Below are positions 14,518 through 37,183 of a DNA stretch of 64,000 nt, piece after piece; the first letter of the stretch is position 1; each line of letters begins with the position of its first letter. Both the position numbers and the translations under genes were made by a program. Source of the stretch: a virus (lineage: Duplodnaviria; Caudoviricetes); the IMG/VR virus record IMGVR_UViG_3300025939_000001, positions 1,891 through 65,890 of that record; one strand, given 5' to 3'. The notes below the pieces were generated by a model that made no database searches, was not told the origin of the DNA, and was given only the letters and a program-made list of their open reading frames with translations.

Positions 14518-15107
14518 TGCTGAAACCTGGAATCACAGTCGCGATCGCGACCATCCCTCCGAGAGTGGGGCTACTGCAACGCGCGGTGGCCTCTGTTCTC
14601 TCGCAGACGCACCCTGCAGCAGGTCTGGCAGTTGCCGTTGACTACGCGAAACAGGGTGCTCCAGCGACGAGACAGCGCGCGTTGGACATGGTGGATACTC
14701 AGTGGGTTGCGTTCCTGGATGATGATGATGAATTCATGCCGCAGCATCTTGCCACTCTTTGGGATGCAGCTCACGCTTACCAAGCGGACTACGTGTATTC
14801 GTGGTTTGAGACGATCCCATATGGCAGTGACCCTTTTCCCATCGGACATTACGTGCAACCCTGGTCCAACGCGGAGCCTCGCCAGACGACAATTACAACG
14901 CTGGTTCGGACTCAGCTCGCTCGTCAAGTTGGATTCGCACGCTTTGAGGAGACGGGCGAACTCGTTGATGGGCAGAGGTTCGGTGAGGATTGGGCATTCA
15001 CACTCGGATGTATGGACGCCGGTGCGAAGATTCACCACGTGGTCGCCAAGACGTGGTACTGGCATCACGACAGCGGGAACACGAGTGGAAGGCCTGATCG
15101 CTGGTGA
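14517..15107 (+). CDS. Glycosyltransferase, GT2 family
   Basis: VAIATIPPR, VAFLDDDD and GEDW motifs. Confidence 0.85.
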   Translation: MLKPGITVAIATIPPRVGLLQRAVASVLSQTHPAAGLAVAVDYAKQGAPATRQRALDMVDTQWVAFLDDDDEFMPQHLATLWDAAHAYQADYVYSWFETIPYGSDPFPIGHYVQPWSNAEPRQTTITTLVRTQLARQVGFARFEETGELVDGQRFGEDWAFTLGCMDAGAKIHHVVAKTWYWHHDSGNTSGRPDRW

Positions 15108-21721: not shown

Positions 21722-22126
21722 TCAGAGAGCGACCGTCTCCTCGACTGGAGCGTCGGTCTGCTCGACGGAGGTAGGCGCCTCCGCGGGGCTCGGAGCATTA
21801 CCGGCGATCCAACGTGCAGCGCCGCCACCAGCGTTGGTCTTGTAGACCTTGCCGTCACGCTTGAGGCGCCACAGCGACAGGTACACCTTGTTCGGCGCGA
21901 GGTCGAGCGCGGTGGCGATCTCTTCCTTGGTCTTGCCGGCGACGACGTCTTCGACGTTCGCCGACAGGTACTCGAGAACCTTGGCGTCCTGGTCGATGGT
22001 CGCCTGCGGACGCGGGCGACCGCTGCCAGACTTGGTGTTGGCGACGGCGTTCTCGAGGCTGGCGGCCTCATCGACCGGCACAGCGGTCTCGTCGACGGGA
22101 GCCTCAGGGGCGGTCGGGTCGGTCAT
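21722..22126 (-). CDS. Winged-HTH DNA-binding protein (probable internal start inside the methyltransferase ORF)
   Basis: AAGGAC then ATG at 22126. TKEEIATALDLAPNKVYLSLWRLKRDGKV is a wHTH. Codon usage shifts to high GC3. Confidence 0.55.
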   Translation of the reverse strand: MTDPTAPEAPVDETAVPVDEAASLENAVANTKSGSGRPRPQATIDQDAKVLEYLSANVEDVVAGKTKEEIATALDLAPNKVYLSLWRLKRDGKVYKTNAGGGAARWIAGNAPSPAEAPTSVEQTDAPVEETVAL

Positions 22127-23389
22127 GGTCAGTCCTTGTCCTTGAAGAAGTTTACGGAACTTTTTGAGCGTCGAATTCGACTGTACCACATCTGAAGTCG
22201 AAGCGTTCGTCGTGTCGATTAAATGTTCCCGCTCGCCGATCTTGACTCCCGTGAAGGAGCCTGGATTCTCCTCTAGAGCGGCTCGAATCCAACCGCCGAT
22301 CCAGTTGCCACAGTCGACTGTAATACCTTTACCCCAGGTGGCTGGGAGACCCGGAACGCTACGTAGAGGTTCAATCAGCCAGCTGTCTGGGAAGCCGAGG
22401 ATCCGCGCAACCTCACGATGTGTCAACATCCGAGGTTTTCTTGGGTGCAGTGTGATGACGGGGCCTGCGCCGGTGATTACTCTCGCTGGATCACTCGCTC
22501 GCCAGCGAACTGGTGTGTTGAATCCCATGTTGAACCCTCGGGCGACCACCTTCTCCTCAAAGGACGCCCATGAATTGGGCAGTCGTCCGTGGGTGTCGTA
22601 GTAACGCTTGGCAACTCGAGCAAGGTGGTCACCCTCTGGCCACTCCACACCCGACAAAAGGTCAACCACTCTATGAACGATTGGAGAACGAACCGACATG
22701 TGCCCGTCCACGAGCCCGTCGTCACGTGTGCGAGGCGTGGCCCACCAGGAAGGAGGCGTGTCACCCACAGGCTGCGGTAGCCAGGTTTCGGGGAGATGCT
22801 CCAAGTCGCCGATAGCGTCGTCCAACACAGGCAGTCGACTTGGGCGAGGCCACTCGATCCCAAAAGGAACCCTTGCGGCGACCCAAAAATACCGTCGCCG
22901 ATGCGCGACTCCACCGACTGCGTATGCGTCGTGTAGAACGTGAAAGAGCGTCCAATTCTCATTCGTCAGTTCCTCCAACCGTTCACGCAGTGCTCGCATG
23001 AGCGCGAGACCATCCGGCCGCGTGAAGGCGAGCTGTACCGACTCAAAGACTGCGACTTGCGGCTTTACTTTCGCGGCATACTCAACGAATGACCACATGC
23101 ACTGGTTGATCGGAGAATTCGCACCACGGAAGTGCTTCGCTGACATACCAGAGAAACCCGAGCACGGTGGATTGCCGGCAACCACATCACTCTCCACGAC
23201 GCTCCACTGGGTAGCGTCCACGGCTTCTGCTTTCCATCCTGCACCAAGTAGGTGGCGGTTCGCTTCGCAATTCGCGACACCGAAACCTCCCTTCATCTCT
23301 CGCTTACCGACGAGCTCGAAGCCCGCCTGGACCATCCCTAAGGTAAAGCCACCAGCGAACCCGAGCACGTCGACAAAGCGAAAGGTCAT
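21722..23389 (-). CDS. C5-cytosine DNA methyltransferase, in frame with a C-terminal winged HTH
   Basis: Motif I FVDVLGFAGG, IV GNPPCSGFS, VI FESV, VIII RRRYFW, IX/X R.LT.RE.ARI.GFPD..GKGI. Confidence 0.85.
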   Translation of the reverse strand: MTFRFVDVLGFAGGFTLGMVQAGFELVGKREMKGGFGVANCEANRHLLGAGWKAEAVDATQWSVVESDVVAGNPPCSGFSGMSAKHFRGANSPINQCMWSFVEYAAKVKPQVAVFESVQLAFTRPDGLALMRALRERLEELTNENWTLFHVLHDAYAVGGVAHRRRYFWVAARVPFGIEWPRPSRLPVLDDAIGDLEHLPETWLPQPVGDTPPSWWATPRTRDDGLVDGHMSVRSPIVHRVVDLLSGVEWPEGDHLARVAKRYYDTHGRLPNSWASFEEKVVARGFNMGFNTPVRWRASDPARVITGAGPVITLHPRKPRMLTHREVARILGFPDSWLIEPLRSVPGLPATWGKGITVDCGNWIGGWIRAALEENPGSFTGVKIGEREHLIDTTNASTSDVVQSNSTLKKFRKLLQGQGLTMTDPTAPEAPVDETAVPVDEAASLENAVANTKSGSGRPRPQATIDQDAKVLEYLSANVEDVVAGKTKEEIATALDLAPNKVYLSLWRLKRDGKVYKTNAGGGAARWIAGNAPSPAEAPTSVEQTDAPVEETVAL

Positions 23390-23410
23390 GTATCTATCTT
23401 ACTAGGAACA

Positions 23411-23776
23411 TCACCCAGTGGGGCTGATGTAGCCGTTGTCCTCGCGGTCGTGATTGATACCGTTCTTGCGAAGGTACTCGTTGAAGAACTCATCCGCGGA
23501 GATGTTGGCGACCAGTAGCAGGTTCATGAAGAAGTGCCAGGCGTCGACCATCTCGGCGAGATAGCTTTCACGGTTGATGCCACGGATGACGTGGTTACTC
23601 CACGGCTTCCACGCTGTCTCACGGAGTGCTTCGTGCAGCTCATCCTCGGTGGCGAGCACCATGGTGCGGATGAAGTCCATTCGCGCCGTGCCGCCCAGGT
23701 CACTGGGCGCAACACCACTGTACTTGATCTGCAGTGCTTCCTGCATTCGCAGCATTTCCTCGAGACGATCCATCAT
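23411..23776 (-). CDS. All-alpha NTP pyrophosphohydrolase (dCTPase/dUTPase, MazG-like)
   Basis: EDELHEAL...WKPW...EMVDAWHFFMNL...EYLRKN..N..R motifs. Confidence 0.85.
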   Translation of the reverse strand: MMDRLEEMLRMQEALQIKYSGVAPSDLGGTARMDFIRTMVLATEDELHEALRETAWKPWSNHVIRGINRESYLAEMVDAWHFFMNLLLVANISADEFFNEYLRKNGINHDREDNGYISPTG

Positions 23777-24768
23777 CCTTCGAGCTCCTTCTTAACTTGA
23801 TCGTAGATCCACGCGTACGTCTTCATAATACCAGCTGTGAGATCGATCTGCGGCTCCCAACCACCCGTGACTTCCCTTAGCAGTGTGTTGTCCGAATTGC
23901 GACCGTGGACACCCTGTGGCTTGTCGAGCTGGTAGTTGCGCTGGAGGACACCAACTCGTCCGTACGCCACCTCCTCAACGGCGGTCACAAGCTGGTTCAC
24001 AGTCACCCAGGACGAGGTACCGAGGTTCACCGGCGCCTGCATGCCGCTTTCCATGATGCGACGAATGCCCTCGACGTTGTCGTCAATGTACATGAACGAC
24101 CGCGTCCTCGAGCCATCACCCCAGATGTCGATCTGCGGGATGTCGCTTAGCTTCGCCATGGCGACCTTGCGACAGATGGCGGCAGGTGCCTTCTCGCGGC
24201 CGTCCCTCCACGAACCAAGTGGACCATACGAGTTGTGGAATCGGACGACACGCACGTCGAGACCACGCTCGATGCGGTGATACTCCATGAGCTTTTCAGC
24301 ATACAGCTTCTCCCAGCCATAGCCTGGCTCCGGATCCGCGGGGTGCGCCATGTCTTCGCGCAGCGGAACCGGCTCATGCATGTATCGATCGCTCTGCCAG
24401 TTGCGTGAGTAAGCGCACGCCGACGAACTGAAGAACACGCGCTGACCCTCGTGACAGGCGTTGAGCAGGTTCACCGTCGTGGTGATGGATGACGCACACT
24501 CGACGAGATGCGTCTCGATGAACCCGATGCCGCCCATGTTCTCTGCGAGATGGTACACGTCATCTGCCTGCATGAGGGCGTACTGGAAGTACTGTGGCTG
24601 TCCCGCATCGGTACGCTCGCGGTTGTTCGCCTCGTCATGGATCTGCCACCACTCCGCGAACGGCTTGATGTCGATGGCAACGACCTTGTTACCTTCCTCG
24701 AGCAGTCGCTTGACGAGATGGCCGCCGATGAAGCCACCGGCTCCTGTGACCAACACATTACGAGACAT
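23773..24768 (-). CDS. NAD-dependent epimerase, GDP-mannose 3,5-epimerase-like
   Basis: TGAGGFIG, HLAENMGG.GFI, SSACAY, YGWEK, GREKAPAA.CRKV, DG..TRSF.YIDD.VEGI, P.GV.GRNSDN, all characteristic of the GME family. Confidence 0.85.
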   Translation of the reverse strand: MSRNVLVTGAGGFIGGHLVKRLLEEGNKVVAIDIKPFAEWWQIHDEANNRERTDAGQPQYFQYALMQADDVYHLAENMGGIGFIETHLVECASSITTTVNLLNACHEGQRVFFSSSACAYSRNWQSDRYMHEPVPLREDMAHPADPEPGYGWEKLYAEKLMEYHRIERGLDVRVVRFHNSYGPLGSWRDGREKAPAAICRKVAMAKLSDIPQIDIWGDGSRTRSFMYIDDNVEGIRRIMESGMQAPVNLGTSSWVTVNQLVTAVEEVAYGRVGVLQRNYQLDKPQGVHGRNSDNTLLREVTGGWEPQIDLTAGIMKTYAWIYDQVKKELEG

Positions 24769-26044
24769 TGTCGAGCCTTTCTTCGATCATGCGGAGATAC
24801 CGCTTCTCTTTCATGGCATTGTCGAAGTGCTCACGCTGCTTGGTGATGATCCAGCGGAACGCCTCTGGATTTGCAGCGATCGCTGCGAGACGAAGCTTGA
24901 GTTCGCGTGGAGTCTTCACACGAAGCCAGTCGTGAAGTCCCGGATGCGCGTCCTTCAGGATGTGGTTCTGCGTGTCGTACTCGGGGTGGAAAAAGCAGAC
25001 GGTGCCGGCGGCGAACGCCTCCCACGGCTTCGTTGTTGCCCAGCCACTGCCACTGGACGGTGTCGTGAAGGTGCACCGCGTGGAGTTGAGCAGGGGGAAG
25101 TACTGGTCCCATGGCGCGGGCTTGATTTCACGACCGACTTGCCGCTGACCCTCATTGCTCCACGCGCCATGAATCCAGTCTGGAGCCATCGGGTTTACCC
25201 AGTGGTTGATCGCGTCGACCCGGCTCAACCCCTTCTTGACACCGTTCGCACGTGCCTCGTTGATGAACAGTCCGAATCGATGCGGACGATCAAACGACGA
25301 GTTGAACGTGATGAGATCACCAAATGGCGTCCCAGGCGCGAGCGCGTTGATCTCTAGCCGCGAGTACACGTTTTCAACGACAGATGTCCTGATCTGGAAT
25401 GTCTCAGGATTATACTGTTCATGCTTGAGACCATGCTTGAAGTCGAACTGCGTCAGCACTGGATGGTTCAGCGGATGCTTGAGATCACGCATCTTGTGTC
25501 GGTTTCGCGCGTCAGCGTTGAGCCAGATGGCATCATGCGTGTGCGCTCGTCCATGACGGAACTGGTTCACACCGTCGAGGATGTAACCCGCGTAGAACGC
25601 GCACCAGTCCTGTGGCTTCGTCCACTGGGTATGGTCGTCGACTTTCGGGATGGACATGTTACTGGAGCCATGCTGTCCAGTCCAGATGACGAGGCCGTCA
25701 AGACTGCTCCAGATGTCTCCCATGATATTACGGAAGATCTTGGTGATCTGCTTGTGCTGCTCGACAGTCAGGTTGCCCTTGATGTTCGCCTTGGCGAGTG
25801 CGCTGCGAAGTTGGCCGCGCCACCTATCTTCCGTCCATGGATTGAACACGTTCTCTGGCAGCCCAACACTTTGTGTGTTTTCACCAGAGTTTCGGCCAAC
25901 GAGAACGAAGTGATCATCTGGGTGCCGAAGCGCCAGCTCGTTGATGACCGCGTACTTCTCCACATCACCACCAAGCGTGCCACACTTAGCGAGGCTCAAT
26001 GGCATGCTTCGACCCAGTGTGGCGTAACCGATCAGTCTTCCCAC
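24758..26044 (-). CDS. DNA base glycosyltransferase, T4 beta-glucosyltransferase-like (GT-B)
   Basis: The C-terminus ATTKPWEAFAAGTVCFFHPEYDTQNHIL resembles T4 BGT ITLRVWETMASDAVMLIDEEFDTKHRII (recalled). GTG 26044 has a GGAG RBS. Confidence 0.7.
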   Translation of the reverse strand: MGRLIGYATLGRSMPLSLAKCGTLGGDVEKYAVINELALRHPDDHFVLVGRNSGENTQSVGLPENVFNPWTEDRWRGQLRSALAKANIKGNLTVEQHKQITKIFRNIMGDIWSSLDGLVIWTGQHGSSNMSIPKVDDHTQWTKPQDWCAFYAGYILDGVNQFRHGRAHTHDAIWLNADARNRHKMRDLKHPLNHPVLTQFDFKHGLKHEQYNPETFQIRTSVVENVYSRLEINALAPGTPFGDLITFNSSFDRPHRFGLFINEARANGVKKGLSRVDAINHWVNPMAPDWIHGAWSNEGQRQVGREIKPAPWDQYFPLLNSTRCTFTTPSSGSGWATTKPWEAFAAGTVCFFHPEYDTQNHILKDAHPGLHDWLRVKTPRELKLRLAAIAANPEAFRWIITKQREHFDNAMKEKRYLRMIEERLDNVS

Positions 26045-27084
26045 TTGAGCGTCTCCAAATCCTGCTGCCACGCGGCAAAAGCGTGCGTCAACTGTGGAGG
26101 AATGATTTCGTCGTGCCACGTCAGCATCGCATGCACGTGCTGCATCGCACTGGTGATCGTGGACTGCTTACTCAGGTCAATCTCACGGAGGATCTCACAC
26201 AGCCGTGGCGTCCATCGCATGCCGTGAATCTCGGCCTCGATGTCCTTCGTCAGATCGTGTTCGTTGCGATCCTGATGCACCACTGGGTGACCATAGTACA
26301 CGCCGTAGCCGAAGTGGTCCATCACCTTGCGAGCGAGATAGCTGGCCCAGATGTCGTCGTAGCGACCAACACCCGGCCACACCATCATGAGAGGTGCCAG
26401 CTCTGCGCGATACATCGTTGCCTGCGAGTTGAACGGACCCCAGGTGCCAGGAGTCAGGACGAACGGTTGGTCGGTGATGGACTCAACAAGCGGTCCATTG
26501 ACGAGTCGATCCACCCCATCGATGTCCGGGTCACCGGTCCAAAACATGGCACCGACGCCGATCTTGCATTCCGCAGCCTGATTCCTATACGTGCGCACAC
26601 CGCGCTGGTTGAGAGGGAAGCCACGATGAACGATTTCGTTATGATCGTAATCATACACTCCCCAACACGGATTCTCCCAACCAGTATTGGTTGCGACCCA
26701 CTTGATGTCGTCGTTGTACACGGTCATCCGGTTGCGAAGCACACCGATCTGGTTGTCCATGGTGGGAATGTTGTCGTCGTCCACAGTGAGGATGTACTGC
26801 GGGTTGAGCTTCATTGCCTCGAGCAGTGCGATGTTTCGTCGCTGGATGGAGTTCCAGCCGATGGCTTCGCTGCTTGCCCACGCAATCTGGTCGTCGGGGT
26901 GTAGGTAACGCGTGGTGATGCCATGCGTCAGCGTGATAACGTCAAGCACGTCGATGATCTCGTCGTGCGGAGATTTCTTGTCACCGGCGACGATGATGAC
27001 GTCATCGACGGTGAGACCCTTTGCCCACTTGGCGAGCACGTGTGGCACGTTGATCGTTGTGGTGATCAAGACGGTGTGAGTCAT
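26032..27084 (-). CDS. RGP/UDP-arabinopyranose mutase (GT75)/STELLO-like protein
   Basis: VDDDN, HRGFP, W.G.PDID, GRYDDIW.SY and H.RN.HD...D..AE motifs. Confidence 0.7.
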   Translation of the reverse strand: MTHTVLITTTINVPHVLAKWAKGLTVDDVIIVAGDKKSPHDEIIDVLDVITLTHGITTRYLHPDDQIAWASSEAIGWNSIQRRNIALLEAMKLNPQYILTVDDDNIPTMDNQIGVLRNRMTVYNDDIKWVATNTGWENPCWGVYDYDHNEIVHRGFPLNQRGVRTYRNQAAECKIGVGAMFWTGDPDIDGVDRLVNGPLVESITDQPFVLTPGTWGPFNSQATMYRAELAPLMMVWPGVGRYDDIWASYLARKVMDHFGYGVYYGHPVVHQDRNEHDLTKDIEAEIHGMRWTPRLCEILREIDLSKQSTITSAMQHVHAMLTWHDEIIPPQLTHAFAAWQQDLETLKWED

Positions 27085-27100
27085 GCTTCTCCTCTCATAC

Positions 27101-27139
27101 AAAAAGGCGACCAGCAGACCCTTAATCTGCTGGTCGCCT
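27101..27139 (-). terminator. Intrinsic terminator after the SSB gene
   Basis: AGGCGACCAGCAGA/TCTGCTGGTCGCCT stem followed by a T5 tract on the minus strand. Confidence 0.8.
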
Positions 27140-27192
27140 CGTTGTCGACTATACCATAAGTCGTCGCTGGTTAGTCGTTGATCACCATCTAC

Positions 27193-27840
27193 TTAGATGG
27201 GCAGTGCAGGCGGCGAGTCCGGCGCGTTCGGCCCCGCGACGGCGCCCGTGACGCCACCGATCGTCGCCGGGTTGATGTCCGGCTCCGGCGTCAACGGAGT
27301 CGGCTTGGCCGTCGGCAGACCCGCCACCGGAGTAGCGGTAGAAGTCGGCGTAGCACTCGTCGGGAGGACTGGACCAGGCGCGCCGATAACCGTACCTGGA
27401 GCGACCGGGCCAGCCGCTCCAGGGAGACCAGAGGCTCCACCGAGCTGCGTCAGCCAGCCCTGAACCTCGTTACGGTCGACACCCTGCCACGCCTTGTGAC
27501 CGACCTTCACTCGAGCCGGACGGTTCAGCATCGCACTGGCGACCTGCTCCGGAGTCGGGTTCTGCGCGAAGAAGTTCGCGTCGAGACCGACGTTCTCCAT
27601 GTTCCGGAAGAAAATGGCGAGCGCCATCGGGTTGTCCGTGGAGACGACCAGGTTCGTCGGGATGCGGCGCTTGATGTTCGGGCCATCGGTGATCTCCACC
27701 TTGACCTTGAACATCAGTGCACCAGTGGACGCCTTCGTCGCATCAGCAGCGATGATCTTGACGTTGTAGTCGCCATCAGGCACCAGGTCAAGCTGACCCT
27801 TGGACTGCTGAAGCAACTCGCTGAATGAGAACTCAGCCAC
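27193..27840 (-). CDS. ssDNA-binding protein (DUF669-like)
   Basis: VPDGDYNVKII.A..TKASTG..M.KV...I..GP motif with a Pro/Ala-rich tail. Adjacent to the AAA ATPase. Confidence 0.75.
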   Translation of the reverse strand: MAEFSFSELLQQSKGQLDLVPDGDYNVKIIAADATKASTGALMFKVKVEITDGPNIKRRIPTNLVVSTDNPMALAIFFRNMENVGLDANFFAQNPTPEQVASAMLNRPARVKVGHKAWQGVDRNEVQGWLTQLGGASGLPGAAGPVAPGTVIGAPGPVLPTSATPTSTATPVAGLPTAKPTPLTPEPDINPATIGGVTGAVAGPNAPDSPPALPI

Positions 27841-28588
27841 GGTTGACCTCCATCATGTTGACGTTCTCGAAGATGGTCTTCATCATCGAGTCGATGTTGG
27901 GCTCGGTGACGACGTCACCAAGCGTTCCCTGTACACGCTCGCCGGTCTCGAACTGCGGATGTGAGCCGATCCACAGCTTGCGAACCTTCTTCGTCGGCTG
28001 CCCGTTTTCATCAGGAGCCATGTCGACGTAGAGGTACCCACAGATGTCGACGAGGTACGGCAGTGAGATACCGATCTGCCCCTGCATGTAGGGTTCCCAC
28101 TTGCCGGTCTTTCCATTCTGTCGGGTCTCTGCGATCATAACGACACACTGGATAGGACCAGGCAGCATCGTCATGTCGCGGAAGGCGCGAATCGTCGAGT
28201 CCATTTGCGTCAGCAGCTGACCCCAGTCCTGCATCTGCATCGCCTCGGTGCCCTTGAGGTTGGCCTTGAGGCGTCGCTGGATCTCGGTGATGGAGTCGAT
28301 GACCACAGAGCAGAAGTCGTGCTCGACCTGCGTGAGGTGTCGGAAGACCTGCTGCACGTGCACCCACTGGGTGATCGTGACGATGCAGGCGTCCCAGGTT
28401 CCGTCATGTCGTGGGATCGGCTCAGTCATCGGATCCCAGTGAATCTTGCGCGTCCTGATGAAACGCCAGGATCCCTCCGCGTCTAGCACCAGCACAGGTG
28501 GCGGTGCAGACGACGATAGTGTCGACTTACCCACCTTCGCGCCAGCGTGGACGAGCATCGAGAGGACTTCGATTTTATTCGTCGCCAT
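27833..28588 (-). CDS. AAA ATPase (Sak4-like recombinase)
   Basis: Walker A AGAKVGKST, Walker B VVIDSIT and QDWG motif. Confidence 0.8.
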   Translation of the reverse strand: MATNKIEVLSMLVHAGAKVGKSTLSSSAPPPVLVLDAEGSWRFIRTRKIHWDPMTEPIPRHDGTWDACIVTITQWVHVQQVFRHLTQVEHDFCSVVIDSITEIQRRLKANLKGTEAMQMQDWGQLLTQMDSTIRAFRDMTMLPGPIQCVVMIAETRQNGKTGKWEPYMQGQIGISLPYLVDICGYLYVDMAPDENGQPTKKVRKLWIGSHPQFETGERVQGTLGDVVTEPNIDSMMKTIFENVNMMEVNRG

Positions 28589-28688
28589 GCGTCGCCTTCT
28601 TCGCCGAGCTGGCGATGAACGCAACGATACAGACAGCACCAGTGGTGCCGACGATACAGATGCCAAGCAGTGCGGTTGGCCAGTCCAT
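28575..28688 (-). CDS. Small membrane peptide (37 aa)
   Basis: MDWPTALLGICIVGTTGAVCIVAFIASSAKKATHGDE. TAATG coupling upstream. Confidence 0.5.
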   Translation of the reverse strand: MDWPTALLGICIVGTTGAVCIVAFIASSAKKATHGDE

Positions 28689-29107
28689 TATCGTTTCACA
28701 CATCCTTCACATACGTAGTCACTGTGTTTCTGATAAGCCATCATTTCTCCTGGACGGCGAATGAGAAACAGCGGCTCATCTGGTTGAACGATTCGACGGC
28801 ATCGATAACAATTATGTTCGCTATGGGCATCCCAAACACCCGAGATGATATCACCACCTTCCCAGTTACGAAGCCATGGAATCAAGTCGAAAAGACTTGT
28901 GCGTGGACAATACTCGTGCACAACAATTTTACCCAATCGGCTTCCGTAACATGCGTTTTGACCGACAGTTACCTGAAGACCACAGTCAGCGCATCGATTC
29001 TCGTACTTTGCGATGAAACTTCCGCTCGTACGAAATACGTTTCCATGCTGCCACTGATCAGCAAGCGCAAGAAGCACTGACTTCGCACGGACAAGCTTAC
29101 GTGTCAT
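28688..29107 (-). CDS. Hypothetical Cys-rich protein
   Basis: CADCG, HEYC, CYRC and CEGC motifs. Fills the gap with coupled overlaps. Confidence 0.55.
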   Translation of the reverse strand: MTRKLVRAKSVLLALADQWQHGNVFRTSGSFIAKYENRCADCGLQVTVGQNACYGSRLGKIVVHEYCPRTSLFDLIPWLRNWEGGDIISGVWDAHSEHNCYRCRRIVQPDEPLFLIRRPGEMMAYQKHSDYVCEGCVKR

Positions 29108-30167
29108 CTTTTATCACCTCGTCTCGATAGTAATACGCAAGCGGATCGCCTGCTGTGTAGAAATTCTTGAGCATGTCCTCAACACGGCTACCATCGTTGA
29201 AGAGTGGACAGACCATGCGATAATCGCAGTCCCACGTGCAGTTTGGATTCGGCGTGGGGTATGCGACCTGGTGGTGGTTTGCTCCATCGTCGAGGCGACC
29301 TTCGAGCTGTAGTACATCTTGAATCGTACCATACAGCTGGTGATAGAACGACTCGATCTGGAGTCGATTGTGCAGAATTTCTTGACGCTGATAGAAGGGC
29401 GGATTCGCCTTCGCCGTACGCTTGACACGTCGGATCATGTTGTAGATCGCACCACCAGATCGCTCACCCAGTTGGGTATTCGTCAGGATCTCGATCAGGT
29501 CGTACCAGAGCATTTGCTCGTCGATGGCAAGGAGCATAGTCTTGCTTGCAAAATCGGCGACAGTTTTGTGGTCCATGTATCTAAGAACACCATCACTACG
29601 TCGGCGCACTTTTGCATCCAACTTAGCAATGATGTACACAGGGACACCACCGCGTCCAGTAAGACCTGACATAACTGCGTCTTCGTAGCGTTCCGAGGCA
29701 AGTACTTCATAATCGGCGTCTGCTCCCGTCTCCTCGAGCCACTGAACATAACCGGAGACCATGGCTCTCTCCAGGTCATCATCTTTCTTCATCTTAAGCA
29801 ATATACCAGTCAGTCCTTCGTCGTCCTTGAAGGTGACTAGAACGGCTTCGGTGTCGGCCTTGATGAGGCTCTCGAGCGCAGCCTGCGGTTCAGTTCGTGC
29901 GGATCCGTCAGGTACGTACCACTGGGCAAGTGCGCGGTGAACTCGGTCTCCGATGGCTCGTGGTCCTGTAGGGCTTTCTCGAGCAAATCGAAGCCCACGA
30001 TACCAGGCGAGCCACCACTTGCGGCGGCATCGCTTGAACGTCGCGATTTCACTGTGAGAGATGAGTCGAGCGTCGTGGCGGAGCGTGATTTGCGTTGCAC
30101 GGTCTTGATAATGAGAAAACGGATTGAGCTCCGTTTGCGGTGTCGACCCTTCGCTCCCACTGGTCAC
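29097..30167 (-). CDS. Cas4/RecB-like PD-(D/E)xK exonuclease
   Basis: S.S.I.TFKRC.RKW, LD..V......DHKT, C.WDC.YRMVC. Confidence 0.85.
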   Translation of the reverse strand: MTSGSEGSTPQTELNPFSHYQDRATQITLRHDARLISHSEIATFKRCRRKWWLAWYRGLRFARESPTGPRAIGDRVHRALAQWYVPDGSARTEPQAALESLIKADTEAVLVTFKDDEGLTGILLKMKKDDDLERAMVSGYVQWLEETGADADYEVLASERYEDAVMSGLTGRGGVPVYIIAKLDAKVRRRSDGVLRYMDHKTVADFASKTMLLAIDEQMLWYDLIEILTNTQLGERSGGAIYNMIRRVKRTAKANPPFYQRQEILHNRLQIESFYHQLYGTIQDVLQLEGRLDDGANHHQVAYPTPNPNCTWDCDYRMVCPLFNDGSRVEDMLKNFYTAGDPLAYYYRDEVIKDDT

Positions 30168-32023
30168 TCCGGTTCCCCAAGAAATGAATTCATGATTTTG
30201 TTCTCTTCATCGTCCAGGTGCATGACTGTCTTGCCAGCAGCCAAGAGTGTTGCGCGATCACGGGTGATCTCTTCAAGACGCTTCTGCTTTTCATACAAGC
30301 GTAGAACCTGCGTCTCTTCCACCGTGTCAGCTGTGATGATGTCGATGATGTTGATCGACTGGTGGATCTCAGAGCCGATGCGGTGAACACGATCCTCACC
30401 CTGCATGTTGTCGATTAGTGACCACGACCGTTGCAGACGGATCATCGTGTCTGCCGCTGTCATCGTCAGTCCTGTGCCACCAGCTTTGAGGGTGAATAGC
30501 AGAACGCGAAGCTTTCCCGCTTGGAAATCCTCGAGCGCGCGCTGACGGTCGTAAGCATCCACTGCGCCTGTGATGAGACCGTGGCTGACATTGGCCTTAG
30601 TAAGTCGCGCAGCGGCGAGCTCAATGATCTTACGTTGCTCGGCGGCGACCACAACTGGACGGTCACCAAGTTCATCAAGGACGACCATGAGTTCGTCGAT
30701 CTTTGGAGATGGCTCGGCGAGAAGAACAGTCCAGTCGCGGGGATCATCTGACCCGTTGTAATCCACGGTGCAGTACGAAGATGCCAGCTGCAACAGTCGA
30801 ATCTGAGCAGTGAGATCGGACTTAGCCACCAGGATAGTTCCGTCATCGAGACGGGTAAGAAGACGGCTTTGGACTTCATCATACGCCTTTTTCTGCTTTG
30901 GAGTCATTTCAACGAGGCGAGTCTGACGGATCTTTGGCGGCAACTGCGTGAGAACAAGTGCCTTAGGCATCCGACGAAACCGCGGATCGAAGATCTTGAA
31001 GAACTCTTCCTTCGTCGTTGGGTTGATGCCTACGACGTCGAGTCCTCCGTGACTGTTCCACGCTTGGAGGCAGTAGCGGTCGACGAACTTGGACTTCGTC
31101 GGATATTCATTCGGTGCGACGAAATGCATGATCGACCAGAGATCGGAAGGGTCGTTCGCCAGTGGAGTCCCCGTGAGGGCCCAACGGCGAGCCACCGTGG
31201 ATCCCGACCCAAGCGCCCATGTTGCTCGAGTCTGTTTCGCCTTAGGATCCTTGATACGGTGCGCCTCATCAACGACCACCGTGCGGAATGTGATCTGGTT
31301 GAGCGGTCGTGGATGGACTTCACACGCCGCTGGCTTGATGTCGAGGCCATATTGCTTATCGCATTCCTTGCACCGGATGAGGCGGATTGAGCCATAGCCA
31401 GCGAGCCTGCTGAGCCTGAACGTCGACTCGAAGTTGGTAACCACAAGCGCAGTCGGATCCTGTGCAGCGGCGGCTATCAACTTTGCCTTGACGGAAGCTG
31501 ACCCAGTGAGCACGTACGGAGTGGCCATCGGCAACCACGTCGCTGCCTCCTTCGCCCAGTTCATCTTCACGGAGTTCGGAGCGATCACAAGCGCTGGCAG
31601 TGAGTCTTCACCGATCTGTCGCATCGCGGTGAGAACTTGAATGGTCTTGCCTGTACCCATCTCGTCACCGAGAAGACCAGAGCCAGCGGTGAGAAGCCAT
31701 GCAACGCCCATGGTCTGAAACGGGTAAAGACGTGGATCGAAGTGGAATGCGCCATCGTTGTCTTCAAAACGCGAACGAAGCGCGAGAGACAGCTTCACAC
31801 GATGATTGAACTGGTCCCAAATCCACTGGGTGAGCTGCGGTCCTACCTCAAGATGATCACCGAACGAGCCCTTAAGCTGTGAACATGCGGGCATCGTCAG
31901 TGGGATAGTCCATTCCTTGTCTGTGGCGTTCCACCGCGAACCAGGGATGGCCTTCACAAGTTCTTTCTCGTTCCAGGACGTCGCAACGACAATGCGATCG
32001 TCCTTCAATTCAACCACAGGCAT
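30164..32023 (-). CDS. SNF2-family helicase
   Basis: GDEMGTGKT, DEAH, LTGTP..N, GGTGLT, QGEDRVHRIG. Confidence 0.92.
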   Translation of the reverse strand: MPVVELKDDRIVVATSWNEKELVKAIPGSRWNATDKEWTIPLTMPACSQLKGSFGDHLEVGPQLTQWIWDQFNHRVKLSLALRSRFEDNDGAFHFDPRLYPFQTMGVAWLLTAGSGLLGDEMGTGKTIQVLTAMRQIGEDSLPALVIAPNSVKMNWAKEAATWLPMATPYVLTGSASVKAKLIAAAAQDPTALVVTNFESTFRLSRLAGYGSIRLIRCKECDKQYGLDIKPAACEVHPRPLNQITFRTVVVDEAHRIKDPKAKQTRATWALGSGSTVARRWALTGTPLANDPSDLWSIMHFVAPNEYPTKSKFVDRYCLQAWNSHGGLDVVGINPTTKEEFFKIFDPRFRRMPKALVLTQLPPKIRQTRLVEMTPKQKKAYDEVQSRLLTRLDDGTILVAKSDLTAQIRLLQLASSYCTVDYNGSDDPRDWTVLLAEPSPKIDELMVVLDELGDRPVVVAAEQRKIIELAAARLTKANVSHGLITGAVDAYDRQRALEDFQAGKLRVLLFTLKAGGTGLTMTAADTMIRLQRSWSLIDNMQGEDRVHRIGSEIHQSINIIDIITADTVEETQVLRLYEKQKRLEEITRDRATLLAAGKTVMHLDDEENKIMNSFLGEPE

Positions 32024-32065
32024 TCGTCTTACGTCCCTTCATCCTCGATCAGTAGTTTGATTGTA

Positions 32066-32608
32066 TCACGAGGTTAGCTGCAACCACAGGTCAGGTCGAG
32101 TGGAAAATAGCATGAAACCTGCGTGGCGTGCGGCATCGTTGGCGTGACCGTCTTTCGTCTTCTTGTACCATCCGAGCTTCCGCAGCACAGCATCAGTCAC
32201 AAGCTTCTTGACCTCAGCGCGGGGTTGTAGCACAAATGTTACGTCACGCTGTGAAGAGAGCCAGTCTAGGGCTCCATTGCACATGATGGCATCCAACTGC
32301 GCGGTCACGACAGAGCGCCCAGTGGGGATCGTGTACCGCTCTGAGCCAATCCGAACACGCGATGCCTCCGGTGGTCGGCACCAACGCTCTGCATACGACA
32401 CTACGTCGTGCCACGGCATCTCACTGGACGACAGGTTCGCACTCCACCCTACCTCCAACGTGGAGATGGTTAGTACGGCGATGCCGGCCATCAGACCTGG
32501 GTCCACGCCGATGCAGTGTAGTTGCTCAACCGGTCCAGTCAATCTTGGCGCCCCAGCGATCACCAGTGGCGATGCCAGCGGTGATGGGGACAGAGAGGAG
32601 CTTGTCAT
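32066..32608 (-). CDS. RuvC-like Holliday junction resolvase
   Basis: IGVDPG, SERY and HANDAARH motifs. Confidence 0.7.
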   Translation of the reverse strand: MTSSSLSPSPLASPLVIAGAPRLTGPVEQLHCIGVDPGLMAGIAVLTISTLEVGWSANLSSSEMPWHDVVSYAERWCRPPEASRVRIGSERYTIPTGRSVVTAQLDAIMCNGALDWLSSQRDVTFVLQPRAEVKKLVTDAVLRKLGWYKKTKDGHANDAARHAGFMLFSTRPDLWLQLTS

Positions 32609-34316
32609 CGTTCATCACGTCTTTCAGTGTTGTGAGGACATCGGAGAGGTTCTCGTTCGGTACATCCATGATGACCTCATCGTGCACAGGTAGGATCATG
32701 AACTTCTCGAGGCCGGCGTTGGAGAGCTCGACGAGCTTCATCTTGAACATCTCTGCCGCCAGCCCCTGAACAAGATAATTGACAAGAGCATATTCCTTTC
32801 CTGAGTCGCTCGGATGGCGTCGGTTAGTAAGAGGCGACCGAACATATCCGACTCCCTCGGTCGCTTTACGCTCCAACGCAACGCGCTGAACTCGATTCTG
32901 GAAAGCTCGTACCCCAGGGAACGACGCGTCGAACGCATGCATTGCAGCGGCCGCCTGCTCTTCGCTGATTCGAGCAGTGAGGGCCAACTTCGCGATCCCC
33001 GCCCCGTAAATCTTGCCGTAACCCACGTTCTTGACGACCTGACGACGAGGATCCTTCTTGGACTCGATCGATGGATCATTGAACACGCTCCTTGCGAGCA
33101 CGATGAAGAAGTCATCCGGTGCGAGGAATGCCGCACGAAGTCCGAGATCCTGCGACATATGCGCCAGACCACGCATCTCGATCTGGTCGAAGTCACAGAA
33201 GACCATGCGGCCGTCGTCACCGTAGCGGGTGGTGTAGCAGTTCCGTACAGTAGTTGCCGCAGAATTCTTTTCTGATGCTCTGGGGAGGTTCTGGAGGTTC
33301 GGACCGCTCATCGACATCCGACTGGTCCGAGCACCCAGTGGGTTGATGGACGGATGCATCAGGTCGTTGGCGTCTGCGTCACCAACGATGTGCGAGAGAT
33401 AGGTTGATCCCACCTTTTGCAGTTTGCGGCGGGAAAGCACAGCTGCCGCGAGTGGATGATCGATGGAGGCCAATACATCCGCATCCAATGCGTCGGCGCC
33501 GGATTTCGTCCGCTTGACGAAGTCGAATCCTTCCGCTTTCAGTACGTCGATGATCGCCTGGTTTGACCCCGGACTGACGCTGTACTTCTCCTGCACCCAC
33601 TGGGCAACCTCCTTGCAGTATTGCTCATACTTTGTGAGATACTCTGCGGCGTAAGCACGATCGACGTGTGCGCCGTTGATCTCCATCTGTCGAACTACCC
33701 ACGCGGCGCCAAGCTCAACTTCATATGCTCGCTGGGATCCGTCTCGTTCGAGCTGCTCCTTGAGGTACTGATACAGACGAAGTGTGATGACCGGGTCGAG
33801 CGCGCCGTATGTCCAGTACGGCTGGTACTCAATCGGCACCGTGGCCCATGTCCAACCGCCCTTAGAACCGATCGACTCATCGAGCGTGTCCTGCATCGCC
33901 TTCGCTCGAGGGTCAACATGCTTCGCAGCGAGGTTCTTGAGCGCCGTGGAGTACGTTGGGTCGAGAATATGCGCAATAGGACGAGTGTCGTGCAACCGAT
34001 CACGAGGTATAGATACCCCAACGCGGTCCAGAAATGTCCAGTCAAAGCTAACGAAGTTGTGACCGACATACCATCCCTTGTACTTTCGCACGACCTCACG
34101 GACGACGCCTCCCCAGTCCTCCCAGGGGATGGCCCAACCGTTGTCTGCATCGCCGATCTGGACGAGACGAACACGATCGTTCCACTTGTCGAGACCGCTG
34201 GACTCGATGTCGATTCCGATGGTGTCTTCCCAGCGGGTTTGACCGAGCCACTCCATGAGAGCGAACGCCTCATCGACCGAATCGACGAGCCGAAGCTTTA
34301 CGTTATCCAGTGACAT
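32526..34316 (-). CDS. polA: DNA polymerase, family A (3'-5' exonuclease + polymerase)
   Basis: DIESSGL exonuclease motif, motif A DFDQIEMR, motif B KNVGYGKIYG (Tyr at the 762-equivalent position), motif C VHDE. Confidence 0.95.
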   Translation of the reverse strand: MSLDNVKLRLVDSVDEAFALMEWLGQTRWEDTIGIDIESSGLDKWNDRVRLVQIGDADNGWAIPWEDWGGVVREVVRKYKGWYVGHNFVSFDWTFLDRVGVSIPRDRLHDTRPIAHILDPTYSTALKNLAAKHVDPRAKAMQDTLDESIGSKGGWTWATVPIEYQPYWTYGALDPVITLRLYQYLKEQLERDGSQRAYEVELGAAWVVRQMEINGAHVDRAYAAEYLTKYEQYCKEVAQWVQEKYSVSPGSNQAIIDVLKAEGFDFVKRTKSGADALDADVLASIDHPLAAAVLSRRKLQKVGSTYLSHIVGDADANDLMHPSINPLGARTSRMSMSGPNLQNLPRASEKNSAATTVRNCYTTRYGDDGRMVFCDFDQIEMRGLAHMSQDLGLRAAFLAPDDFFIVLARSVFNDPSIESKKDPRRQVVKNVGYGKIYGAGIAKLALTARISEEQAAAAMHAFDASFPGVRAFQNRVQRVALERKATEGVGYVRSPLTNRRHPSDSGKEYALVNYLVQGLAAEMFKMKLVELSNAGLEKFMILPVHDEVIMDVPNENLSDVLTTLKDVMNDDKLLSVPITAGIATGDRWGAKIDWTG

Positions 34317-34932
34317 CTGTGATTACCGTGATCCCACATCGCTCGAGGAATGAGTATGACTTGTCGAGATTCCGGTGCGTGATGTTGACGTTTTTCCACT
34401 GGTGATCCACGACAACCATCGCAAGACCAGAGTTCGCGATGAGCTTTGCGCAACCAAAGCATACGCCGCTTGTTACGTAGATCGTACCACCTTCGCGGGC
34501 ACTTCGATCACCTCGCATGAGCGCATTTGCCTCAGCGTGCAGAGACGGGCAATCGGAGTAATCCTTCTCCAGCTCGAAGATCGGTTCAAAACCCATCTTC
34601 TTCATATTCTCATCCGATGCGAGAACGCGTTTACTGCTTGGTGCAACAACGTAGATCCTGCCGCTCACCGTTTCCATTGATAGATCTGGTGAACCAGCCG
34701 TCGTACGCCAGCCAGTAGGCTCCGGATTCGCTCTGAGGCACCATTCGGTACATGGCTGTAGATCTGTCTGGAACCCACTGGGTGGACCGTTGTAGCCCGT
34801 CTCGAGGAGGCGGTTTGTTGCACTGACAACCACCGCGCCGACCTGGTCACGAGAACAAAGCGAGCGCCGCGCGACGGTGCGCGCGACGCTCAGCCATGTC
34901 TCATCCCAGCTAGGCCGCGGTGCCGCGTCCAT
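34303..34932 (-). CDS. dCMP deaminase-like protein
   Basis: C.R.QVGAV, GYNG, HAEANAL and C..CAK Zn-binding motifs. Confidence 0.85.
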   Translation of the reverse strand: MDAAPRPSWDETWLSVARTVARRSLCSRDQVGAVVVSATNRLLETGYNGPPSGFQTDLQPCTEWCLRANPEPTGWRTTAGSPDLSMETVSGRIYVVAPSSKRVLASDENMKKMGFEPIFELEKDYSDCPSLHAEANALMRGDRSAREGGTIYVTSGVCFGCAKLIANSGLAMVVVDHQWKNVNITHRNLDKSYSFLERCGITVITDVTG

Positions 34933-35779
34933 GGAGCTGGTCACGGTACCACACCTCCGATGCTGTTTCGTTTTCGAAAGACTCGTTACGAAGAATCATA
35001 TGAGCACGATCCATGATCGTGCCAAACGAATCGCCGACACGACCGAAGCCATCCGGCTGCCACTTTGAGTGATACGCCTCGGTGACTTCAGCCATCTTGA
35101 TGTTATACAGCTCAAGCATGGCTTGTGCGGCGAGCTGATCACGTGTGTAAAGATGTAGTGACAGTGCGGTGTGACGGTAGATCCCAGGTGTCGTGTTCAT
35201 TGCCCGTGCCATGCTCGCCTGGAGCTGGGTGAATTGGAAGACGTCGTAGGGCAGCCCGAGCCAGACGTCGTTGCTTCGCATGATGACGTTCATATCCAGC
35301 AGTCCATCTCGAATAGAGAACTGCAGCGCGATCGTACACGGGTAGTCCTTCTTACCCTTGACGTTGTCCATCCACGGATCCCACAACGTAACGATCGCCT
35401 GGCGAGTGTCCAGATCAGTCATCAGCTTGTTGATCGCGTTGTACGCTTGGAGCTTGATGCGTTCGCCGTACGCTCCCCAGAAGAACGGGTCGCCGTGTTC
35501 CTTGTCCAGATACCGTCCGAACTGCGGGGCGACCTTGAGGACGAGATTAGGATCGGAAACTGCGGCGACAAGCTGCGCCGCCTCCACCGCTCCGATCGCT
35601 GGCTTGAGGTTTCGACCAAGACCAAGTGGAAGACCCCCACGCTGATTGAGCAGTACGATGGACATGAAGCCCAGGTCGAGCGTCTCCTGACCCCGCGGGG
35701 CCCGCCGCTCTCCATACTGGAGAACGCGGCGGAGCACCAGGGGGTACTGCCCCATGTCGTGCAGTACCATTTCAGACAT
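34910..35779 (-). CDS. Thymidylate synthase homologue, predicted dCMP hydroxymethylase/modifier
   Basis: PRG, YG.R, DTRQA, catalytic YPCT, RSND..LGLPYD, SLHLY. Asp replaces the dUMP-specifying Asn. Confidence 0.8.
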   Translation of the reverse strand: MSEMVLHDMGQYPLVLRRVLQYGERRAPRGQETLDLGFMSIVLLNQRGGLPLGLGRNLKPAIGAVEAAQLVAAVSDPNLVLKVAPQFGRYLDKEHGDPFFWGAYGERIKLQAYNAINKLMTDLDTRQAIVTLWDPWMDNVKGKKDYPCTIALQFSIRDGLLDMNVIMRSNDVWLGLPYDVFQFTQLQASMARAMNTTPGIYRHTALSLHLYTRDQLAAQAMLELYNIKMAEVTEAYHSKWQPDGFGRVGDSFGTIMDRAHMILRNESFENETASEVWYRDQLHGRGTAA

Positions 35780-35780
35780 A

Positions 35781-36290
35781 TCAGAAGACCTGCTTAAGTG
35801 CGCGTGCCTGCCACACAGTTGCGTCACCCTGGGAGAGCCATGCGACGAACTGTTCCCAGGTGAAGCCGCGTGCGGTGTCACTGCCGTTCGTGTTGGCGTT
35901 GACGAGTCGACCGGTGAGGTAGAACTTGCCAGCGACCTTGACGACGCCATAGGCGAACGAGCGGCGGCTACCCGTACGGTACCGCATGTCCACCTTCAGC
36001 ACATCGCCGTTCTTGAACGGATCGGCACCGTACTTCTCTCGCTCCGCGACGATCTTCTCGAGGCGGTCAGCCTCGGCGCGCAGCTCTTCTGCCTGCGTGA
36101 GGATGTCCTGATCATTCTGCACTGCTGTCTCCTTCGTCGGGAACTGGATTCCGCCTCGAGTGACGCGGATCTCTGGCATCATACGGTAGTGCTCTCGTGG
36201 AATTGCCGCGCCAAGAGCACGGTGATCGGTTGTAGGTGGAAAGATGTTGTTCGTCACACCATAAATGTCTGCTTCGAACTCGTCATACAT
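35781..36290 (-). CDS. Hypothetical protein
   Basis: TGATG coupling. Coiled coil followed by a small beta domain. Confidence 0.65.
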   Translation of the reverse strand: MYDEFEADIYGVTNNIFPPTTDHRALGAAIPREHYRMMPEIRVTRGGIQFPTKETAVQNDQDILTQAEELRAEADRLEKIVAEREKYGADPFKNGDVLKVDMRYRTGSRRSFAYGVVKVAGKFYLTGRLVNANTNGSDTARGFTWEQFVAWLSQGDATVWQARALKQVF

Positions 36291-37183
36291 CAGCTCATTG
36301 CCTCCTTGATGATCTCGCCGTACGACTCCATCGCAGTGTAGGCAAATCGCCGCATCCACTGCGGGTGTTTGGCGTCGGTAGCGATGGTAGGCCAGTCACC
36401 ACCATGTGCGTAGTTCCACTGTCGCCGTGCGTTGACACCAAGTGTGACGATCGGTGGCTTACCGAGTCCCCACCACTGATCAAAGACAATGCCAGGATCG
36501 GTTTCACAGGCGTTCATGATACCGACCTTCATGTGGTCAACACCAGCAGCGTGCATTGCTCCCATGAGCCAGTGACCACTCGAGGCACGCTCTGGCACAA
36601 ACGGGAACATGAATCGACGATCGTTTCGCTGGTCACCGAGCAGAAGCACCTCGGGATTTGCAGGACCAATATATCGTCCAGCACGTGCCGCATGCATCGG
36701 TGCATCGGCTCGATCAAAGATCTTATCTGATGTCCGTTCAACCCAGTGGGGACGGGTCTTAAAGATCGTCTCATATCCATCAAAGATGGTTTTGAGATCA
36801 TCTCGCTTAATCAACGTGTCACCACGAAGATCGTAGCGCTGCTCAAGGACCTCGAGCGGAGCCTTGACATACTCGAACGAGCAGCCGAAGGTCTGCAACA
36901 CCATGTCGATGTAATCCGCCTGCTGCTCCGTCAGGAGACTTTTATCGCGGAGTAGAGGACCATACACCAGCTCACCCATATGCCAGCGATCCAGCACGAG
37001 ATGCGTGGACGTCGTTGTCAGCAGATAAAGACGATCGTTGATCGGACCGAGATACTGATCAAGAATTGAGCCAGCGCGTGGTGGACCCTTACGAAGGAGA
37101 GCACGTGGCGGCCTACCGGTCATCAGTCGCTGGGCGATTGATGTCTTACCGGCGAGATCTGGTCCCTCGAGAACCGTGATCAC
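36290..37183 (-). CDS. dNMP kinase fused to a UDG-like domain
   Basis: EGPDLAGKTS and LDRW..GE.VYGP kinase motifs. C-terminal VLLLGD...PF....SG..L...N...IVTLG..A...HP pattern. Confidence 0.75.
   Translation of the reverse strand: MITVLEGPDLAGKTSIAQRLMTGRPPRALLRKGPPRAGSILDQYLGPINDRLYLLTTTSTHLVLDRWHMGELVYGPLLRDKSLLTEQQADYIDMVLQTFGCSFEYVKAPLEVLEQRYDLRGDTLIKRDDLKTIFDGYETIFKTRPHWVERTSDKIFDRADAPMHAARAGRYIGPANPEVLLLGDQRNDRRFMFPFVPERASSGHWLMGAMHAAGVDHMKVGIMNACETDPGIVFDQWWGLGKPPIVTLGVNARRQWNYAHGGDWPTIATDAKHPQWMRRFAYTAMESYGEIIKEAMS

Follow-up and report, generated by a model that had tools for sequence, protein, structure and literature searches.

Predicted two-stage modification of cytosine with a GDP-mannose-derived sugar in an uncultured actinophage

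The 64,000-nucleotide stretch analyzed here (the window) comprises bases 1891-65890 of a 65,890-bp IMG/VR virus record (IMGVR_UViG_3300025939_000001) that carries direct terminal repeats and is graded complete. Between positions 21722 and 37183 of the window, the minus strand encodes a set of nucleotide, replication and sugar enzymes. We favor, if narrowly, reading these genes as a T4-style two-stage system of cytosine modification in which a sugar derived from GDP-mannose is placed on 5-hydroxymethylcytosine (5hmC). The evidence that carries this reading comprises a thymidylate synthase (TS) homologue with the complete active-site signature of T4 gp42, a homologue of the T4 gp56 pyrophosphatase, and a glycosyltransferase (GT) whose modeled fold is nearest to T4 beta-glucosyltransferase (BGT) and whose gene lies between those of two predicted sugar-tailoring enzymes.

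In the first stage, before replication, the TS homologue would, as its family signatures suggest, convert dCMP to 5-hydroxymethyl-dCMP. A P-loop kinase would phosphorylate this product, a gp56-like pyrophosphatase would clear dCTP and dUTP from the pool, a dCMP deaminase would supply dUMP to the host thymidylate synthase, and a family A DNA polymerase (PolA) would incorporate 5-hydroxymethyl-dCTP. In the second stage, on the DNA, the BGT-like GT-B enzyme would move a sugar onto the hydroxymethyl group, as its fold and gene context indicate. The donor would be host GDP-mannose processed by the two flanking enzymes, and the predicted product is L-galactofuranosyl-5-hydroxymethylcytosine. The parts of this scheme differ in strength. 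The residues conserved in the synthase make it likely that 5hmC is made, and the modeled GT probably acts on 5hmC in DNA; that the sugar is L-galactofuranose, as the sequences of the two sugar enzymes suggest, has slightly less than an even chance. The fullest version, in which 5-(L-galactofuranosyl-oxymethyl)cytosine occurs in virion DNA beside C5 methylation of unreplaced cytosines in a widespread, cassette-exchanging clade of soil and freshwater actinophages, is offered tentatively, as possible rather than probable.

The genes of this arm, with the features between them, are the following.

21722-23389, minus strand: C5 cytosine DNA methyltransferase with a C-terminal extension (PF00145, E 1.9e-18)
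23411-23776, minus strand: all-alpha NTP pyrophosphatase (dUTPase_2 type), T4 gp56 homologue (PF08761, E 2e-12)
23773-24768, minus strand: GDP-mannose 3,5-epimerase-type extended short-chain dehydrogenase/reductase (SDR) (8sg0 and 2c59, E 1e-63)
24758-26044, minus strand: GT-B enzyme of 428 residues, T4 BGT-like, predicted DNA 5hmC glycosyltransferase (no Pfam family; fold match)
26032-27084, minus strand: RGP/GT75 protein, MtdL-like, predicted GDP-L-galactopyranose to GDP-L-galactofuranose mutase (PF03214; MtdL 7yua/7xpr)
27104-27140, minus strand: terminator-like hairpin in the DUF669-mutase intergenic region, its 17-pair stem followed by a T-run
Minus strand, listed without coordinates: DUF669, AAA_24, PD-(D/E)XK nuclease and SNF2 helicase genes, further genes of the same arm
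32526-34316, minus strand: PolA with 3'-5' exonuclease (PF00476, E 1e-64; PF01612)
34303-34944, minus strand: dCMP deaminase (PF00383, E 2.7e-13; phrog_174)
34910-35779, minus strand: TS homologue of T4 gp42 type (PF00303; Asp at the ThyA N177 site)
36290-37183, minus strand: protein of 297 residues with a dNMP-kinase-like P-loop domain (1-150) and a domain of uracil-DNA glycosylase (UDG) fold (~165-297) (YorR 2axp; Foldseek)

Enzymes of the nucleotide stage

The TS homologue, whose best PDB match is the CMP hydroxymethylase MilA, was aligned together with 119 relatives (120 sequences) to Escherichia coli ThyA and T4 gp42, for which annotated records supplied the sequences. In ThyA numbering its active site reads L143D, C146, H147T, Q165M, C168N, D169 and N177D, identical to T4 gp42. 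These positions are invariant across the alignment, position 168 excepted: the catalytic C146 and N177D are present in 120/120 sequences, as are L143D and D169. The Asp that the first-pass annotation had placed at the specificity site is indeed there, at the position of ThyA N177. In this family, N177D shifts the substrate from dUMP to dCMP, an acidic residue at 143 admits water and so yields a hydroxymethyl product instead of a methyl one, and the flavin-dependent 5-hydroxy-dCMP synthases of RB69, DLP3 and RL38JI can be recognized by D169N (Lee et al., NAR 2026, PMC13326640). The retention of D169 points to the hydroxymethyl type, and the protein is predicted to be a 5-hydroxymethyl-dCMP synthase, neither a dTMP synthase nor a 5-hydroxy-dCMP synthase. 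Measured against the NCBIfam thymidylate synthase models, it scores far under the cut-off in each case. The same gp42-type signature is found in phage DSL-LC01, in Gordonia phage GodonK and on one distant contig, and the Gordonia phages Forza and GMA2 likewise have a TS homologue of gp42 type. The genome contains no other ThyA-family gene, and a search of it for ThyX found none; with neither ThyX nor a true thymidylate synthase, dTMP must come from the host enzyme, which the phage deaminase would feed in the manner of T4.

The pyrophosphatase (121 residues) aligns end to end with the T4 gp56 dCTPase/dUTPase (BLASTP, 29% identity over 142 columns, E 2e-12), and gp56 itself matches PF08761, the family of the window protein. 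The gp56 homologue and the full gp42 signature together support the earlier claim that the phage makes a modified cytosine nucleotide. The all-alpha pyrophosphatase named in that claim proved to be this PF08761 protein, and the family matches of the dCMP deaminase (PF00383) and of PolA (PF00476 and PF01612) likewise agree with it.

The dNMP kinase of the first-pass annotation stands as regards its P-loop dNMP-kinase fold, but the protein is not a homologue of T4 gp1. Its sequence contains a GxxxxGKT loop and gives a match to SPbeta YorR (2axp; E 3e-7). In its model (predicted local distance difference test score, pLDDT, 82), Foldseek relates the N-terminal half to YorR, deoxynucleoside kinases and thymidylate kinases, and the C-terminal half to family-4 uracil-DNA glycosylases (1l9g, UdgX, 1ui1); both domains hold motifs conserved across 13 relatives. 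The kinase step is analogous to that of T4 gp1 but non-homologous, and the enzyme is a kinase of YorR/thymidylate kinase (TMPK) type fused to a UDG-fold domain, which may serve in nucleotide binding or as a glycosylase. The motifs of this domain depart from those of known UDGs, with GD(V/Q)RN for GE(A/G)PG and PHPQxxRRF for HPS, and the fusion is kept in the 13 relatives and in homologues of the size found in DSL-LC01. Some 510 bp (35780-36289) lie between the kinase gene and that of the TS homologue, two genes that are adjacent in relatives; an open reading frame in this gap (35781-36359, minus strand, up to 192 residues) has a weak PHROG match (phrog_1342, E 2e-4).

The glycosyltransferase and its sugar cassette

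Sequence searches of PDB, Pfam, PHROGs and NCBIfam gave no match for the GT, which lies outside PF09198 (CAZy GT63), the family on which T4 BGT itself scores 325 bits. It has more than 600 homologues, found with few exceptions on contigs from metagenomes, which in many cases are ~60-67 kb long; tblastn against named phages returned a single weak match, in Pseudoalteromonas phage XG4 (24% identity). The fold is more informative. In a model built from 40 homologues (pLDDT 87, predicted template-modeling score 0.86), T4 BGT is the top match with two aligners (Foldseek E 2e-8), and among predicted viral structures the second-best match carries the label DNA beta-glucosyltransferase. As modeled, the GT is BGT-like in fold and outside PF09198. 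The first-pass description of a T4 BGT-like GT-B enzyme is borne out in that T4 BGT is the nearest solved structure by fold comparison.

The SDR matches the plant GDP-mannose 3,5-epimerase (GM35E) structures 8sg0 and 2c59 over residues 5-328. All eight key GM35E residues are kept, as expected of the epimerase-like enzyme proposed earlier: S116 and C118 align to S143 and C145 (motif SSAC), Y150 and K154 to Y174 and K178 (YGWEK), N179 to N203 (FHN), K193 to K217 (GREK), R223 to R243 (TRSF), and R290 to R306 (GRNSDN). The Cys/Lys/Arg set separates GM35E from GalE and from GDP-fucose synthase, as GMER has His/Lys and GalE is without the pair (PMC8787198).

The enzyme encoded on the other side of the GT gene had been described as resembling RGP and UDP-arabinopyranose mutase. 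Its membership of the RGP/GT75 family (PF03214) was confirmed, but it is nearer to bacterial MtdL than to the plant mutase: it matches MtdL (7yua/7xpr) at E 1.7e-29, or at E 4.2e-56 when a profile of 22 phage sequences is used, and the plant UDP-arabinopyranose mutase far more weakly, at E 5e-6. MtdL is the GDP-L-galactose/L-fucose pyranose-furanose mutase of A201A biosynthesis, and the roles of its residues have been described (PMC9937993). The phage protein keeps the DDD motif, the nucleophile Arg159, Asp195, Ser228/Gln229, Arg257 and the base Asp260, all invariant or nearly so in ~30 phage relatives, together with His292 of the NEHD motif. Of the putative GDP-specificity residues, the protein shares Thr13 and Ser86 with MtdL and has Lys for Asn42; position 13 is Pro in some relatives, as in the plant UDP enzymes. 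The protein is predicted to be an MtdL-type GT75 GDP-L-galactose mutase. An L-galactose-type sugar, possibly a furanose, had been suggested at the outset, which fits the MtdL-like mutase. The cyanophages S-T4, Sf-CH5 and Sf-CH8 also encode a GT75 homologue (35% identity).

A nucleotidyltransferase for sugars was sought in the genome and not found, and GDP-mannose would therefore be taken from the host. The first-pass annotation had called the pathway complete and the sugar supply the phage's own. The pathway genes are present, but this wording was too strong for a genome with no nucleotidyltransferase, no ThyX and no true thymidylate synthase.

All the genes that had been named lie on the minus-strand arm, where their positions differ from those first assigned by a few codons at most, and their coordinates confirm that the GT gene stands between the epimerase-like and RGP-like genes with the C5 methyltransferase gene nearby. 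The mutase and GT genes overlap by 13 nt, the GT and SDR genes by 11 nt, and the SDR and pyrophosphatase genes by 4 nt; because of these overlaps, the four genes read as one operon. The hairpin at 27104-27140 divides this sugar/GT operon from the recombination genes upstream and lies at the upstream edge of a variable sugar cassette.

That variability emerged from the gene context of 48 IMG/VR loci encoding the GT. The kinase, TS homologue, deaminase and PolA genes lie upstream of the GT gene in 22/22 related loci with sufficient flank, and the GT gene of relatives is flanked by those for DUF669, the pyrophosphatase and the C5 methyltransferase. Across the 48 loci the same GT recurs, and what lies between DUF669 and the pyrophosphatase differs among them. 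The GM35E-type SDR is confined to the window and its nearest sisters (copies 74-88% identical, on contigs of ~63-67 kb); these copies came from the protein database, and a search of IMG/VR with the single epimerase protein returned no relative. In other relatives the slot holds a 4-epimerase-like SDR, or the mutase alone, or neither, in which case an APH-type kinase and a nucleotidyltransferase are found. In DSL-LC01 it holds a GT, unrelated to the window GT family when the two were compared, followed by a flavin-dependent UDP-galactopyranose mutase (UGM). The flavin mutase and GT75 are a case of non-orthologous replacement, with pyranose-to-furanose activity alone in common. The sugar genes are thus a swappable cassette next to a constant GT in this phage lineage.

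From its gene content, the virus is taken to be an uncultured actinophage that has no near relation among named phages, because the genome has a WhiB gene, the named phages with the nearest PolA are those of Microbacterium, Arthrobacter, Gordonia and Mycobacterium (at most 40% identity), and the nearest cellular homologues of its epimerase are from Streptomyces and Aeromicrobium (~51-54% identity). A megablast search with the cassette against named phage genomes gave zero matches.

Opposing observations and alternative readings

Several observations weigh against the proposed pathway, and they are taken here with the alternatives that draw on them. The first concern the extent of cytosine replacement. 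In the C5 methyltransferase the FAGG, PPCSGFS, ESV and RRR motifs are intact, and ~150 residues extend its C terminus; the protein is conserved better than any other of the module (55-75% identical in relatives), and it accompanies distant GT homologues too. A conserved and apparently active enzyme of this kind would be without a substrate if cytosine were fully replaced. A TET/JBP dioxygenase was sought in the genome and not found, and a post-replicative route through methyltransferase, TET and GT was rejected on this ground. Because the genome is without TET/JBP and C5 is blocked in 5hmC, the methyltransferase is hard to place, and partial replacement of cytosine is the simplest reading of it. 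Such partial or site-limited replacement, in which the DNA would be a mosaic of C/5-methylcytosine (5mC) and glycosyl-5hmC, modifies the proposed pathway and is no substitute for it; taken over all the evidence it is rather unlikely. The gp56-like enzyme could be chiefly a dUTPase, which would agree with such a mosaic, and so would the genome-wide depletion of GGCC (146 observed against 242 expected, a ratio of 0.60, z -6.2), other C-containing 4-bp palindromes being only mildly low in the genome. This depletion hints at some exposed cytosines, but is too weak for use either way and was given no weight. In relatives, GGCC is not depleted and C-containing 4-bp palindromes occur at the expected frequency, which speaks against partial replacement, as do the presence and conservation of the gp56 homologue and the lack of a TET/JBP enzyme to act on 5mC. 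Public sequencing runs holding the cassette were sought for long-read base-calling errors at C, and none are listed.

The main rival holds that 5hmC is made, but that the cassette and the BGT-like GT do not glycosylate DNA; their target would be, for example, proteins of the virion or the envelope of the host, with the glycosylated virions of mycobacteriophages as a precedent. A GT-B fold does not by itself fix the acceptor, T4 BGT is ahead of the next GT-B family by just ~3 Z units, and an hhalign comparison of the GT family with T4 BGT is not significant (probability 24%, covering the C-terminal 53 columns only). Actinophages have been reported with GTs taken to glycosylate capsids (PMC11256854), and the authors who described DSL-LC01 take its mutase for a cell-wall auxiliary gene. 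The GT75 homologue of S-T4 (NC_048049.1, 6007-6915) sits in a large cluster of heptose, GT and epimerase genes, which is of a general sugar type and has no TS homologue in its vicinity. The genome also has a second glycosylation set at the end of the tail arm (13352-16177, plus strand), made up as follows.

13352-13960 and 13957-14517, plus strand: two S-adenosylmethionine-dependent methyltransferases
14517-15107, plus strand: GT2
15104-16177, plus strand: GT-B

The tail-arm set probably glycosylates the virion with methylated sugars. Its GT2/GT-B pair is constant over the clade, irrespective of which cassette accompanies the BGT-like GT, and this difference in behavior counts against a non-DNA target for the latter. 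So does the position of the BGT-like GT and the sugar genes, which lie inside the replication and nucleotide module, away from the structural genes, and are translationally coupled to the gp56-like pyrophosphatase; T4 BGT, moreover, is the best structural match. Synteny across the lineage is not independent evidence of function, and GT homologues further out were examined for this reason. Two of these, at 31% and 25% identity and in different gene orders, adjoin genes for a TS homologue, a dCMP deaminase, a nucleotidyltransferase and a C5 methylase; the gp42-type signature was confirmed on the 25% contig, the one of the two for which DNA was available, and the 31% contig carries a separate ThyX as well. 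The GT family thus tracks gp42-type enzymes over deep divergence and varied gene orders, and a target other than DNA appears improbable.

About as improbable is a reading that accepts DNA glycosylation but makes the GT75 protein a second transferase, of GT-A type, instead of a mutase, so that the sugar would be a pyranose, L-galactose or L-gulose, possibly in a disaccharide. Throughout the phage GT75 family, Gln (Q272 of alignment A2) takes the place of the Mn-binding His287 of MtdL, and Asp87 is Ile in the window protein. A GT-A domain and self-glycosylation are features of GT75 proteins (PMC9937993), and GTs acting in series are common in phage DNA glycosylation clusters (bioRxiv 2023.12.21.572611). 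Against this stand the catalytic residues kept across the phage family (Arg159, Asp260, Asp195, Ser228/Gln229, Arg257 and DDD) and the flavin mutase of DSL-LC01, whose gene lies directly downstream of the GT gene in the slot that GT75 fills in many relatives, which argues that the job of this slot is furanose formation.

That the nucleotide genes (deaminase, thymidylate synthase, thymidylate kinase) supply thymidylate in the ordinary way and cytosine goes unmodified, as the names thymidylate synthase and thymidylate kinase in databases and record annotations would have it, is very improbable, and this reading was rejected on the active-site signature of the TS homologue, where Asp takes the place of both the dUMP-specifying Asn177 and Leu143 exactly as in T4 gp42; scores far under all thymidylate synthase equivalog cut-offs and the ThyX present besides the TS homologue on a distant relative's contig point the same way.

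Novelty and comparison with known systems

Glycosylated cytosines determine which restriction, CRISPR and type IV defenses are escaped or triggered, and phages that carry them are a source of 5hmC-mapping enzymes. The sugars known so far are glucose, arabinose, galactose/glucose and a few hexose, N-acetylhexosamine (HexNAc) or hexuronic acid (HexA) adducts, almost all from phages of Gram-negative hosts. The window phage is predicted to follow a known strategy, anti-restriction DNA glycosylation, in a version with a new sugar. The first-pass remark that the modification matched no described one holds for the sugar and its donor, but not for the type of system, in which a TS homologue and a GT work with a phage-made NDP-sugar; this type has been described, and T-even glucosyl-5hmC is among its known examples (PMC13326640). 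The novelty would lie in the host group, the GT family and the donor route from GDP-mannose to GDP-L-galactofuranose with a GT75 mutase, and also in the swappable cassette, the kinase-UDG fusion and the linked C5 methyltransferase; no paper describing such features for actinophages was found in the literature.

If the proposed pathway is correct, a DNA base with an L-sugar, base modification from a GDP-sugar donor and the use of a metal-dependent GT75 mutase for it would each be firsts, and a new base and a DNA GT family of presumably broad donor range would be added to those known. A large uncultured actinophage lineage pairs one DNA-GT-like enzyme with interchangeable sugar-activating cassettes, among them a predicted GDP-L-galactofuranose route otherwise known from nucleoside antibiotic biosynthesis. 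The presence of a conserved C5 methyltransferase in a cytosine-replacing phage would then be a puzzle. Named relatives (DSL-LC01, Gordonia phage GodonK and kin) bring the first step within reach of testing in culture.

Two of these named relatives share the nucleotide stage. DSL-LC01 (OQ999401.1, 10973-23497) has the same order of genes: kinase, gp42-type TS homologue, deaminase, PolA, helicase, nuclease, AAA_24, DUF669, GT, mutase and dUTPase_2. It differs in its unrelated GT, its flavin UGM and an additional 329-residue unknown protein. DSL-LC01 is a published metagenome-assembled phage of which no isolate exists in culture, and the gp42-type signature of its 'thymidylate synthase' went unremarked by the authors. 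The cultured phage GodonK (NC_048176.1, 8013-12825) has the kinase (annotated as thymidylate kinase), the gp42-type TS homologue (gene 192), dCMP deaminase and PolA, but no GT at the equivalent position, and its gene content makes it a candidate for plain 5hmC DNA. Neither phage is described in the literature as having modified DNA.

The glucosyl-hmC pathway of T4 (gp42, gp1, gp56, Cd and BGT) is matched by the gp42 signature, the gp56 homologue, the dCMP deaminase, the kinase step and the BGT-like GT-B fold. The window phage differs in its actinobacterial host and in its 66-kb genome with PolA. Its kinase is not gp1-like but of the YorR/TMPK type with a UDG-fold domain, and its GT is without significant sequence similarity to BGT or a match to PF09198. 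The predicted donor is a GDP-sugar tailored by the phage, in place of UDP-glucose from the host, and a C5 methyltransferase belongs to the module.

The sugar genes find their closest parallel in the A201A/hygromycin A route, where the MtdM epimerase and the GT75 mutase MtdL/Hyg20 make GDP-L-galactofuranose in actinomycetes (PMC9937993). The enzyme pair is the same and most catalytic residues of MtdL are kept, with the replacement of His287 by Gln and Asp87 by Ile as differences. In the window, the pair is encoded on either side of a DNA-GT-like enzyme, within a replication module of a phage rather than in an antibiotic cluster, and its activity is predicted.

Phages RB69 and DLP3, with arabinosyl-5-hydroxycytosine, and RL38JI, with galactosyl/glucosyl-5-hydroxycytosine (Lee et al., NAR 2026, PMC13326640), resemble the window phage in combining a TS homologue, a kinase, DNA GTs and a phage-made NDP-sugar, and in the furanose form of the sugars (arabinofuranose, or UDP-galactofuranose formed by the phage mutase of RL38JI). 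However, their TS homologues carry D169N and make 5-hydroxy-dCMP, whereas that of the window keeps D169 and is of the hydroxymethyl type. They also use UDP-sugar donors and a flavin-dependent UGM, in contrast to the metal-dependent GT75 enzyme and the GDP-sugar starting point predicted here.

In metagenomic phages, clusters of C5 methyltransferase, TET (5mYOX) and GT genes occur with partner epimerases, and GT-B pathways often neighbor TS homologues; no mutase or GDP-sugar route is described for these clusters (bioRxiv 2023.12.21.572611). The window genome, which is without TET/JBP, shares with them the combination of a GT, a sugar epimerase and a C5 methyltransferase, but its 5hmC would arise before replication, through the TS homologue.

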